Assembly (NCBI RefSeq): GCF_003991155.1
Contig: NZ_CP031297.1
DNA: 64,000 nt
Source of the DNA: Escherichia coli
GTDB taxonomy: Bacteria; Pseudomonadota; Gammaproteobacteria; Enterobacterales; Enterobacteriaceae
Reading direction: 5' to 3' (one strand)
In this document: piece by piece, positions 58,601-61,600 of the stretch
Layout: every line of letters starts with the position of its first letter
Numbering within the stretch: the stretch's first letter is position 1
Position numbers: made by a program

Positions 58601-61600
58601 AGCACATTAAGCAAGTCCGTTCAGTACGTGGATCTCGACTTCCTAAAGGGCGGGCACTTGAACGCCATGAGATTCGCAGCCTCTTTTTCACATGTGAAAG
58701 TGATTCAAGCGCCAAAGGGCTTCGGGATGCGGCCATTCTCGGGGTGCTCCTCGGGTGTGGCTTGCGCCGCTCGGAAATCGTTGCGCTGGACATGGGAAGC
58801 ATGATCTACAAGGACCGCGCTCTCAAGGTTCTTGGCAAGGGCAACAAAGAGAGAATGGCGTATGTGCCTGGTGGCGCATGGAAAAGACTGGATAAGTGGG
58901 TTGAAGAGGTTCGAGGAACGCATGAAGGGCCTTTATTCCCGAGGATCAGGCGGTTTGATGATGTGACTGGAGAGCGGATGTCGGATCAGGCCATCTACCA
59001 CATCTTGGAGACCAGAAGAGTTGAAGCCGGTCTGGAGATGTTTGCGCCCCATGACCTGCGACGCACCTTTGCCTCCTCGATGCTGGATAACGGTGAGGAT
59101 ATTGTGACCGTGAAGGACGCAATGGGCCACTCAAGCATTGCAACTACCCAGAAATATGACAGACGCGGCGATGAGCGTTTGAAGAGAGCGAGCCAACGCC
59201 TCGATATAGCGGATTAACAGCATGAATGATGAAGAACTCGAACTTGCCAGAGCCGAAGCCATGAAAGCCGATAGGTGCTTTTCAAAAGGACGGCTCAGGG
59301 ACGAATTTCGGATGAAGCCTAAGCCAGGAGTAGAGCCAGTTTCGTTCTACAAAAACGGGTATGGTGGCCAATTTGGAGTGTACCGGATAGCAGATTGCCA
59401 ACCAATGCGGAGAAGGGGTTGTTCACCGGCATCACAAAAGCAAATAAGGGCGCAATCCATCCTTTCGGTCAAGGCAAGAATGCGTAGCAACCTGGCAAAG
59501 GCCTCTGTCATGGCACAAAGGTGGGTCGCTCTGGAACCTCTGGTTCTCGATACCGAGACGACCGGACTTGGTGAAAGAGACCAGGTGATCGAGCTGGCTG
59601 TTACTGACATCAGAGGCGCGGTTCTCCTCTGCACCAGATTACGGCCAACCGTGGAAATAGACCCTCAGGCAATGGGTGTTCATGGCATCACCGAGACTGA
59701 GCTGTCGAATGAGCCTACGTGGACTCAAGTTGCGCCAGCTCTCGCCCGGCTTTTGTCGGGCCGTCATCTGGTGATATTTAACTCCAGTTTCGACAGTAGG
59801 ATGTTGAGGCAAACAGCCAGTGCATTTGGAGACCAACTCTCTTGGTGGCAAGAGCAGAACTGTCTGTGCGCGATGAAGCTGGCGGCTGATGCCTTTGGCT
59901 CAACCAACCGGCACGGCACAATCTCACTTGCGGATGCCACCTGCGAGGCAGGTGTGAGCTGGAAAGGTCGAGCCCATTCAGCAGCGACCGACGCTATTGC
60001 CACCGCCGACTTGGTGACAGAGATAGCCAAAGTCCAACGTGACCTCGTGGTCCAGCTCCAGGAGCTTCAAAGCAAAGGTAATTTGGAATGACAGAACAAT
60101 CCTACGGCGAAAGCCTCAAATTTTTCTCAGACTGGCAGAAGGACCCCGCGAAACGCACCGGCCTGAATGTGCAACACACGCTAACCAGAGGTGAATATCC
60201 TACGGTCAGCATCGAGATTGCGCCGATCAGGGCATCGGGGTCCAGCCCAGACTGGAAAAGCAAGATCACGGTGCAGCTCACTCGCGGCGAACTGACGGCG
60301 TTTTGCAGCGTTCTCTTTGGTTTGCGTAGCAAGGCTGAGGGTTCCTATCACGGCGACGCGAAGAATAAGAGCTTTGCGGTTTACAACAACGGCAAGGCCG
60401 GTGTTGCGATCATCCTTAGTGAGCGAGGAAACCAGCTCCAGAATTTCATCAATGATGACGACCGAATGGAGCTCGCAGTCTTCGCAGTTCGCCAGCTTTC
60501 CAACGCATGGAAAGTTACCCCTTCTGATGCCATCGCGCTGCTACGCCAATCAGCGTGGATGGACCGAAATTTGTCCTAATCGAGCAAATCTAGGCACCCT
60601 AAAAGTCGTCCTATAACCACAAAGTTAGACCATCATGCAAAGTGGGGTATAGAGGGTGCCAGCCCCACCCCAGCAGTCCCCCTCAGCCACATTTCTGGCT
60701 TGCCCCGCGCTTTTCTTCTTTCTCTCTTTTTCTCTCTCTTTCTCAATCTAATCTCACACACGAAGGTCAAACAGGGCACCCGCCGACGCGAAGCGGAGGC
60801 GTATTCTTGCCCCTCCCCCTCATTGCATGATGGTCTAAATCTGTCTACTATGTAACCAATGAACTGTTAGAACAAACCCACACATAGGCGGCAGCATGGC
60901 TAAAAACTTCATATCAGAACAATTCTCGGCCATGTGCCGCGACTTAACGAACCTGTCCTCTCTTATCAAACGACTACCGCCACGGTACGCAAAAGTTGCG
61001 GCCATCCCTCCTACCGGAAAAGGAATGGAGAACGAGCCCGTCAACAAGATTGTCGTAACTGAACAAACTGGGCGCGAAGCTCTTGAGCTGGCAGCGCACA
61101 GCTACAGAGATCTTCACATCAACCCAGACTATTCGCAGAAGTCTGCCAGGCGCACCGTGGGGGTACTCTGGTTCTCCCCTTCCAGGATTGGTGTAGCTGA
61201 CGAAATTGCGGCGACGGTTGAACGCATCAACGCGGCCAAAGCTGGTATCGAGGAGTTCATTATCTCGACGTACCCCACCAGGCAAGAGAGGTTTGAAGCA
61301 CTTCGAGCGGACTGCCCTGGTGTCATGACTCTCCACCTTTACAGACAAATTCGGTGCTATACCAATGGCGACATCGACTCTATCCGCTTCACCTGGCAAC
61401 GGAAGGACTCCTTGAAGAAGCCCGTAAAAGAGGAGCTTTTGCAACGCATCAGAGAGGAGCTGGAGCGATCTGGGCCAGACTATCAACTTCCCCTGGAGCA
61501 GCTTATCCAGAAGATCGCCAGCACCCCGGAGCCTTATCTCCGGGAGCGAAGGGAAGTAAAGGTTCAACCGGTGGCAAACGTCATGGCCGCAGGGGTACTC

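Follow-up and report, generated by a model that had tools for sequence, protein, structure and literature searches.

A variable polypyrimidine repeat between inverted Ter-like sites upstream of the plasmid tus gene: a candidate replication fork trap of IncC plasmids

Why does the backbone of an IncC plasmid carry, between two genes, a long run of DNA with nothing but pyrimidines on one strand? The question is raised by a CT-rich tract in the Escherichia coli contig NZ_CP031297.1 (assembly GCF_003991155.1), in a stretch of 64,000 nucleotides (hereafter, the window) that belongs to the backbone of an IncC (IncA/C2) conjugative plasmid. The tract lies within the 316-bp spacer between a hypothetical open reading frame (ORF) of 163 amino acids (aa) and a gene of the tus family. 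A preliminary description of this locus had recorded a strand-biased, repetitive CT stretch that could be slippage-prone or a regulatory element. We find that the tract is a slippage-prone variable number tandem repeat (VNTR) and that it forms the centre of a conserved non-coding module of ~200 bp that precedes the plasmid tus gene and is delimited by two inverted arms resembling Ter sites. Our favoured interpretation, to which we assign a probability of roughly 0.45, is that the repeat is the core of a fork trap, composed of the Ter-like pair and tus, that would halt the replication fork arriving along the short arm of the plasmid.

The uninterrupted pyrimidine run consists of CTTTTCTTCTTT, CTCTCTTTTT and CTCTCTCTTTCTC, and is followed by AATCTAATCTCACACAC. 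With its 35 nt, it surpasses all other purine or pyrimidine runs of the window (the runners-up are 26 and 16 nt long) as well as every run obtained by shuffling the window (200 mononucleotide and 100 dinucleotide shuffles; the longest run was 16 nt on average and 24 nt at most). The strand bias extends beyond the run: the ~110 nt of the plus strand between 60660 and 60772 include 46 C vs 12 G, with the local GC skew falling to -0.76, and the AT skew at the tract is such that the purine strand is A-rich, not T-rich. Tandem Repeats Finder identifies an array of period 10 at 60714-60744. Together with the presence of the string originally quoted, these results bear out the description of the stretch as strand-biased and repetitive; the range assigned to it, 60640-60790, is wider than the tract itself but does cover most of the interior of the element delimited by the arms (60619-60844). 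The pattern (CTCTC TTTTT)n CTCTC is a perfect homopyrimidine mirror repeat (TCTCTCTTTTTCTCTCT, 17 nt in the window and 25-45 nt in expanded alleles), that is, a homopurine-homopyrimidine tract with mirror symmetry, as is typical of H-DNA motifs.

Comparison of the tract among related plasmids, the check proposed in the preliminary description, showed that its length changes in steps of complete 10-bp units. A search of PLSDB with 701 nt encompassing the tract matched 1,019 plasmids, the exact matches including pNDM-1_Dok01, and the match lengths of the spacer among 1,042 plasmids are 331, 341, 351, 361 and 371 bp. The sole difference among the retrieved alleles is the presence of 0, 1, 2, 3 or 4 copies of CTCTCTTTTT between otherwise identical flanks, in keeping with the suspected proneness to slippage. 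In an evenly spaced sample of 60 records from the match ranking, ~28% carry one copy, as the window does, 56% carry two, 11% three, 2% four and 2% none. The alleles with two, three and four copies share common flanks and show no further difference in the alignment (A1), and the alleles with zero and one copy are both found on the other single-nucleotide polymorphism (SNP) background; because several alleles occur within each of the two SNP backgrounds, the change in repeat number is recurrent. Two records with 9-bp units or single-base losses probably reflect homopolymer sequencing errors. In related families, the length of the tract changes by +9/10, +2 and -13 nt. ORFs of 48-62 aa that run over the tract were considered as potential genes and rejected: they are not conserved, and the 10-bp steps destroy every reading frame. 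The tract is non-coding on both strands.

A polymorphic short tandem unit located 5' of a gene is reminiscent of contingency loci, which likewise show copy-number polymorphism among close relatives, and the repeat could accordingly be viewed as a phase-variable regulator in which the number of units sets the strength of the tus promoter; the 10-bp steps, being close to one helical turn, would also roughly keep the arms in phase. We consider such a switch very improbable. Unlike the repeats of contingency loci, the IncC repeat is located outside any promoter spacer or reading frame in which it could switch expression, and shows no apparent on/off logic: the 3' end of the tract is 79 bp 5' of the -35 hexamer, outside the promoter spacer, the 5' untranslated region (5'UTR) and any ORF, and the tolerance of length changes indicates that the tract is not a promoter-spacer switch. 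Moreover, changes by 2, 9 and 13 bp in other families do not preserve the helical phase, and the alleles have the appearance of variants that are stable within lineages, not of on/off pairs. A generic scan detected no sigma-70-like site in the tract, and neither a promoter nor a terminator in 60300-61100. Thus, the earlier suggestion of a regulatory element stands insofar as the tract is embedded in a conserved non-coding module with the likely tus operator and promoter, but fails for the tract itself, which contains no predicted sigma-70-like site, is not a promoter spacer and tolerates 10-bp changes in length.

The module consists of the distal core, a C-rich segment, the CT tract, a hairpin and the proximal core, in this order (Table 1). 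The 29-nt arms are 86% complementary, their 16-nt cores are perfectly so, and the core sequence occurs in the window only these two times. None of this context, that is, the flanking inverted Ter-like sites, the tus gene and the deep conservation, was part of the preliminary description. A Tus protein alignment search, with one genome per species, revealed the module upstream of tus in 12 of the 12 loci found with Tus at least 47% identical, in Shewanella, Xenorhabdus, Photorhabdus, Marinobacterium, Edwardsiella, Alcanivorax, several Vibrio and a metagenome-assembled genome (MAG) of Rhodospirillaceae, and all 16 matches of the two-arm DNA pattern in metagenomes adjoin a tus homolog (52-91% identity). 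Every relative found with Tus at this level of identity retains the arms, a CT tract and the block CTTTCTCAATCTAATCTCA. The 14-nt cores are identical in 21 distinct modules and show no compensatory change, which argues for a sequence-specific protein-binding site rather than a stem. The placement of the tract is similarly constrained: the distance from the distal core to the start of the tract is 64-76 nt in 19 of the 21 modules, and that from its end to the tus-side core is 76-93 nt in 20 of the 21, with the tract length varying between 15 and 40 nt. Within the interior, which otherwise cannot be aligned across families, the block TTTTTCTCTCTCTTTCTCAATCTAATCTCA is nearly invariant among families in which Tus is only 47-60% identical, and the same holds for the order of T and C in the 3' half of the tract together with the adjoining non-repetitive AATCTAATCTCA.

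Table 1. Features of the tus-associated module, with coordinates in the window
Feature	Coordinates	Strand	Remarks
Distal (left) arm	60619..60647	.	Candidate Ter-like site; invariant core TTAGACCATCATGCAA at 60625-60640, the reverse complement of the right core
C-rich, G-poor segment	60641..60709	+	Local hairpin GTGGGG...CCCCAC
Pure pyrimidine tract	60710..60744	+	Variable unit CTCTCTTTTT at 60722-60731, one copy in the window
Most conserved interior block, TTTTTCTCTCTCTTTCTCAATCTAATCTCA	60727..60756	+	Alignments A3 and A4
GC hairpin, GCCGACGC-GAA-GCGGAGGC	60782..60800	+	GCGAAGC at 60788-60794; U-rich GTATTCTTG next; read from the sequence
tus-proximal (right) arm	60816..60844	.	Candidate Ter-like site and tus operator; core TTGCATGATGGTCTAA at 60823-60838
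Putative tus promoter	60823..60851	+	-35 TTGCAT at 60823-60828; 17-nt spacer; -10 TACTAT at 60846-60851
Conserved tus 5' leader, GTAACCAATGAACTGTTAGAAC	60852..60873	+	GTAAYCAATGAnCnGTYAGA in several families
Plasmid tus gene, 291 aa	60896..61771	+	Pfam PF05472, E=2.9e-46, profile positions 2-283 of 296

Hairpins of differing sequence occupy the position of the GC hairpin in other families and adjoin the distal arm in several of them. The heptamer GCGAAGC within this hairpin, or a similar one, recurs in several families; as DNA, GCGAAGC forms an unusually stable mini-hairpin, which hints that the plus strand may matter when single-stranded.

The CT strand is the sense strand of tus in 16 of the 16 metagenome loci and in 11 of the 12 genome loci of this (first) family. 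The exception is Xenorhabdus hominickii, in which the whole interior is inverted between intact arms (positions 1269-1442 of the retrieved locus L020), so that the GA-rich strand is on the tus sense strand; this locus is a degraded mosaic of insertion sequence (IS) and Tn3 fragments and nonribosomal peptide synthetase (NRPS) genes that has kept the 163-aa ORF and tus, and the context is uninformative, with no rep gene in 20 kb. The inversion shows that recombination between the arms can flip the interior and, along with the perfect 16-bp inverted repeats and a tyrosine recombinase gene 1.4 kb upstream of the module, brings up the idea of a mobile or invertible element, either a miniature inverted-repeat transposable element (MITE) or an inversion switch driven by the recombinase. 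This idea is barely credible. The flanks of the module show no target-site duplication, and the core, in the segments scanned, is found only as this pair, instead of the terminal inverted repeats with target-site duplications at several loci that a MITE or IS would display. The position of the proximal arm and its promoter role before tus are fixed in all families; the recombinase gene is not next to the module in other families; the sole inversion is in a degraded mosaic; and 967 of the 1,042 plasmids are collinear over at least 80% of the query, with no inverted interior seen. A mobile element and an invertible switch were rejected on the collinearity and the core scans, just as the promoter-spacer switch was on the position of the tract.

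The gene at 60896, given as an ORF in the preliminary description, belongs to the Tus family (PF05472), so that the replicon encodes its own Tus-like protein. Comparison with the structure of E. coli Tus (1ECR) using phmmer yields E=2.4e-21, and in more than 1,000 plasmids, the gene is annotated as DNA replication terminus site-binding protein; kfrA and uvrD are located downstream. The residues I79, F140, H144 and G149 are those that we take to form the cytosine-lock pocket of E. coli Tus. Three of them, I79, F140 and G149, align with the invariant I75, F133 and G142 of the plasmid protein, and H144 aligns with R137 in the IncC Tus and with H in most relatives.

The TerB site of E. coli K-12 (AATAAGTATGTTGTAACTAAAGT) is oriented so as to read toward tus, with its end 10-11 nt 5' of the ATG (PMC8707476). 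Through this site, E. coli Tus represses its own gene. The right arm of the plasmid module is likewise vicinal to tus and has the orientation of TerB, reading toward tus; it shares with TerB G6, A8-T9-G10 and T12-G13 and, if a 1-nt gap is introduced, C17-A21 as well. The two arms are oppositely oriented and, with the polarity derived from the TerB alignment, their non-permissive faces point inward. As in E. coli, a Ter-type site is located just 5' of tus, with the G6 end distal, and overlaps the promoter region: the proximal core provides the -35 TTGCAT, and the arm overlaps the -35 hexamer and the spacer of the putative promoter. The pattern TTGCAT-N17/18-TAnnnT is retained in the families examined and scores below the threshold of a generic promoter scan. 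The differences from the TerB-tus arrangement are also apparent. The plasmid core GCATGATGGTCTA requires one gap to be aligned with its E. coli counterpart, GTATGTTGTAACTA; the plasmid site is 57 nt from the ATG, compared to 10-11 nt; a second, inverted copy is found ~180 bp away; and binding of the plasmid protein is a prediction. In IncA/C-type relatives, the right core is located 50-78 nt before the tus start, and in Pseudoalteromonas-type loci, ~21-24 nt before the first long-ORF start.

A second family, represented by a Providencia plasmid and a Paenochrobactrum MAG with Tus 41-43% identical to the IncC protein, contains arms of the sequence TGTATGTTGGTCTA, which is intermediate toward the E. 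coli core GTATGTTGTAACTA and retains GTATGTTG plus CTA. The Providencia/Morganella clade of Tus (41-43% identity) has a differing Ter-like palindromic motif, TTGTATAAAGTATGGATA(T/A)ATATACAG, directly 5' of tus (positions 1400-1494 and 1400-1500 of the retrieved loci L017 and L032, respectively); in L017, the CT-containing pair is 1.15 kb further 5', beyond a 258-aa ORF of unassigned function. Taken together, these comparisons identify the arms as candidate Ter-like sites, the tus-proximal one likely being the tus operator as well. In the conserved leader of tus, GTTAGAACA resembles the arm sequence GTTAGACCA (repeat D4), and GTTAGAAC resembles the arm half-site GTTAGACC; judging from the sequence, the leader might provide Tus with an additional weak contact or act in translation.

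Does the module occupy a position where forks would be expected to meet? In pNDM-1_Dok01 (195.6 kb), repA is at 1.1-2.2 kb and the module is at 180.2 kb, so that oriV is ~16 kb away in the direction of tus and ~178 kb away in the opposite direction. The gene order tus-(kfrA)-uvrD-traFHG-acaDC-hns-stbA-mobI-rep is shared with plasmids of Pseudoalteromonas, V. parahaemolyticus and Edwardsiella; across the module from these genes, the DNA is a hotspot of insertions. A scan for additional Ter-like cores, with at most two mismatches, was negative in 176 of the 195.6 kb of pNDM-1_Dok01 and in 45-50 kb from four other plasmids. Because gene orientation dominates the GC skew computed in sliding windows, we instead compared coding-strand GC skew at four-fold degenerate sites for each strand and segment of pNDM-1_Dok01. 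For genes on the plus and minus strands, respectively, this skew is +0.022 and -0.121 at 3-50 kb, +0.025 and -0.254 (two genes, 77.7-79.4 kb) at 50-78 kb, and -0.144 and +0.013 between the module and oriV; at 80-98 kb, it is -0.009 for plus-strand genes. The sign thus crosses over between the module-oriV segment and the 3-98 kb region, and the two groups of plus-strand genes also differ in the total skew per gene (p=0.001). The same crossing pattern is seen in the Pseudoalteromonas and Edwardsiella plasmids. The skew flip implies that the 16-kb arm is replicated toward the module and that at least 98 kb clockwise are replicated away from oriV, which would place the terminus between 98 and 180.4 kb. 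This range is consistent with a terminus at the module, albeit not proof of it, the DNA in between being largely accessory.

In the second-family plasmid pPROV175-PER, the initiator gene is located ~17 kb away on the other side of the module, the tract is flipped, and the skew falls across the module from +0.178 to +0.015. With both the origin side and the tract reversed, the near-side fork, which would arrive first, would in both families use the CT strand as its leading-strand template, a suggestive agreement.

The agreement of the local GC-skew sign with the replication skew of the module-oriV segment is also what a neutral origin would predict, whereby the tract, lacking a function of its own, is a tolerated low-complexity spacer that is generated and preserved by slippage together with extreme strand-asymmetric mutation pressure next to a fork barrier under unidirectional replication. 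The apparent freedom of its length, 0-4 units in IncC and 15-40 nt across families, and the natural occurrence of an IncC plasmid with zero units fit this scenario as well. Nevertheless, a tract is present in every module found even though the flanks have diverged beyond alignment, its edges are at constant distances from the arms, and the T/C order of its 3' half along with AATCTAATCTCA remains nearly invariant when Tus identity drops to 47-60%; furthermore, the A-richness of the purine strand is opposite to the expectation from cytosine deamination. Given this conservation, a purely neutral origin is improbable.

The main rival explanation is that the tract acts as RNA. A transcript of the CT strand would be C-rich, G-poor and unstructured, and could serve as a Rho site or leader, or as a small RNA (sRNA) with a CU-rich seed; a Rho site would end transcripts coming from the accessory-gene hotspot or free RNA polymerase blocked at the proximal site. 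The composition is suitable for Rho loading, the best 80-nt window containing 24-37 C and 2-7 G in 21 of the 21 modules, and the interior is no more structured than its shuffles, as expected of a Rho-loading site. The nearly constant location of the CT strand on the sense strand of tus (16/16 and 11/12 loci, see above) is compatible with this view, a conserved single-stranded block between variable flanks is typical of sRNAs, and some families possess a -10-like TATAAN 17 nt after the TTAGAC of the distal arm as well as a hairpin with a U-run before the proximal arm. We still regard a function in RNA as unlikely, if less so than the other alternatives. The inward -10 box and the U-run are missing in several families; an inward promoter of the form TTAGAC-N17-TATAGA at the distal arm, found in IncC, IncA and some other families, was rejected for this reason. 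No promoter or terminator is predicted in 60300-61100, and a scan of 58-64 kb at E<=1 produced no Rfam match. RNAalifold applied to the 21 modules pairs only the invariant arms, yielding no consensus structure or covariation, and the folds of the interior, on both strands, have z-scores from -3.4 to +2.8 that are centred near 0. Thus, the signs of an sRNA gene, namely, a promoter and terminator of its own, a conserved structure or membership in a known family, are lacking. Pairing of the CU block with the tus mRNA is no better than that of shuffled sequences, and different families have their best sites at different positions; an antisense regulator of tus, for which the CU block or its complement was compared with the tus mRNA in six families, was rejected on the same grounds. 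In addition, the module of the second family is flipped, so that incoming rightward transcripts would be GA-rich, and conserved distances to both arms are not expected of an RNA element.

The variation, the conservation, the geometry, the Ter-like orientation and the skew flip are observed; under the favoured fork-trap interpretation, we infer that Tus binds to the arms and arrests forks there. The module travels with the plasmid tus throughout the IncA/C-pAQU-type plasmid family, and Tus bound to the tus-proximal site would repress tus, as it does at E. coli TerB. With the non-permissive ends directed inward, by analogy with TerB, forks could enter the ~200-bp interval but not exit from it, making the module a minimal fork trap. 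On its way along the short arm, the fork would pass the tus-side site, replicate the interior using the CT-rich strand as the leading-strand template, and then be held at the distal site until the long-arm fork comes. The outcome would be effectively unidirectional replication, as in R1 and the chromids of Pseudoalteromonas. The copy number of the unit would change via slipped-strand mispairing of the mirror-symmetric repeat, possibly favoured by pausing of the fork.

For the tract itself, we favour a role at the level of DNA, strand-polar and exerted inside the trap, because of its constant placement, strand polarity, mirror symmetry and deep conservation; this is the least supported component of the scheme. 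Homopurine-homopyrimidine mirror repeats such as d(GA)n.d(TC)n can pause replication, and the tract resembles such H-DNA motifs in its pure pyrimidine strand and perfect mirror symmetry; for the tract, triplex formation and pausing are predictions, and the T/C order together with AATCTAATCTCA suggests sequence-specific recognition as well. The tract could be a strand-polar, G-free, H-DNA-prone core that acts on parked or converging forks. One option is that the replisome loses speed there on its way to the single Tus-Ter lock; another is that a factor recognises the conserved CTTTCTCAATCTAATCTCA block. Because each direction would have a single barrier, arrest should benefit from whatever slows the replisome, and the efficiency of a fork barrier is reported to depend on transient fork stoppage (quoted in PMC8707476).

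Several observations weigh against the fork trap or against the part assigned to the tract. The arms do not carry the E. coli Ter consensus of G/C(6) plus the 12-bp core A8-A19; they match the strict consensus at 11 of 17 positions, and this only with a 1-bp gap. The distal arm is absent in pRA1, in the Vibrio vulnificus IncC plasmid pVv_GCU-01-1, where a Tn3-family transposon adjoins the truncated module, and in Xenorhabdus sp. TH1, all of which retain the proximal arm and tus; the complete pair is therefore dispensable for plasmid survival, and the trap is not essential. The skew of the V. parahaemolyticus plasmid is mixed, the terminus can be placed no more finely than 98-180.4 kb as accessory DNA adjoins the module on its left, and the polarity argument comes from two independent contexts only. 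In the second of these, the module is 1.15 kb from tus, and a differing Ter-like motif directly precedes the gene. H-DNA is disfavoured by the positive supercoiling ahead of a fork. The conservation of CAATCTAATCTCA is sequence-specific, so that composition alone does not account for it, and a conserved non-repetitive block points to specific recognition by some factor. Finally, the interior of the inverted pair found before tus in a Pseudoalteromonas chromid (see below) is AT-rich and includes no CT tract, which implies that the tract is not a general requirement of such pairs.

Oppositely oriented polar barriers are known from other plasmids. R6K possesses an inverted ter pair, and the ter sites of R1 (terRL/terRR) enforce unidirectional replication and prevent over-replication (PMC10331603). 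The IncC pair shares with these systems the opposite orientation and a location that is asymmetric or close to the origin, but R6K and R1 use the host Tus, whereas the IncC plasmid encodes a divergent Tus of its own and has a site sequence of its own, and the IncC pair encloses a conserved CT-rich core, with none known in R6K or R1. The chromosome of Edwardsiella tarda has a narrow 'type I' fork-trap dyad, an arrangement that has been proposed to be ancestral (Toft et al. 2021, PMC8707476). Similarly to the IncC module, this dyad consists of two oppositely oriented Ter sites only, one of them beside tus, without back-ups. Unlike the plasmid dyad, which spans ~200 bp and is ~16 kb from oriV, it is located opposite oriC and, as we understand Toft et al. 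(2021), encloses a terminus region with other genes and dif.

Plasmid-borne tus genes are already known, and the chromosomal Tus/Ter system has been suggested to be domesticated from plasmids (Galli et al. 2019). In a literature search, we found no description of the cognate sites of plasmid tus, of this inverted pair or of the repeat polymorphism, no study of IncC replication termination and nothing relevant on sRNAs in IncC RNA-seq; the site sequences were not found as printed strings. The module, if it functions as proposed, is apparently an undescribed miniature replication-termination trap of IncA/C-type resistance plasmids. A broader formulation, which we consider doubtful, is that Ter, CT core, Ter/Ptus and tus make up a self-contained cassette of IncA/C-type plasmids and their marine relatives, a portable fork trap with its own site specificity, a candidate source of chromosomal Tus/Ter and a core that is a third functional part; the polypyrimidine core would then be no passive spacer but a requirement for efficient single-site fork arrest or fork fusion.

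IncC plasmids play a major part in the carriage of carbapenemase and cephalosporinase genes. A Ter pair recognised by the plasmid Tus, if real, would explain the strong gene-strand bias of these plasmids, predict effectively unidirectional IncC replication and provide chromosomal Tus/Ter with an ancestor that can be put to the test. In practice, the 10-bp repeat allows inexpensive sub-typing of IncC plasmids and is a likely cause of assembly or alignment artefacts.

The same search logic yields candidate ter sites before the tus gene of a Pseudoalteromonas chromid. Chromids of this genus replicate unidirectionally, and a search with the E. coli consensus had failed to reveal their ter sites (Xie et al. 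2021, PMC7858055). In the 906-kb chromid pPBSW1 of Pseudoalteromonas sp. Bsw20308, tus is preceded by inverted arms, CAAAGAACACATCATACTA / TAGTAAGATGTGTTCTTTG, that are separated by 83 nt; the proximal copy ends 10 nt before the tus ATG, and a third copy, oriented as the distal arm, is located 440 nt further upstream (1898-1914, 2353-2371 and 2455-2473 in the retrieved locus L059). These AAAGAACACATCATACT-type copies are candidate ter sites by their sequence and arrangement. GATC-rich, iteron-like repeats are found 1.4-1.9 kb 3' of this tus gene.

Some other features of the window are worth recording. To the left of ~50 kb, the DNA is mostly resistance-island-like, with GC content up to 0.66, and includes duplicated 513-aa ORFs (17373-18914 and 35371-36912), with identical short tandem repeats at 18926 and 36924. 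The second-longest purine run, the 26-nt AAGGGAGGGAAAAAGAAAGAGGAAAA at 62935-62960, is coding and specifies the C-terminal tail of KfrA, which is rich in Lys and Glu. Direct repeats of 9 bp, of the TAATTATCG / AATTACCGT type, form two arrays of ~4 copies each, one just 5' of kfrA (61859-61896) and the other ~5 kb leftward (56933-56969); they resemble the 9-bp operator repeats of KfrA from plasmid RA3 and, by this resemblance, are likely KfrA binding sites.

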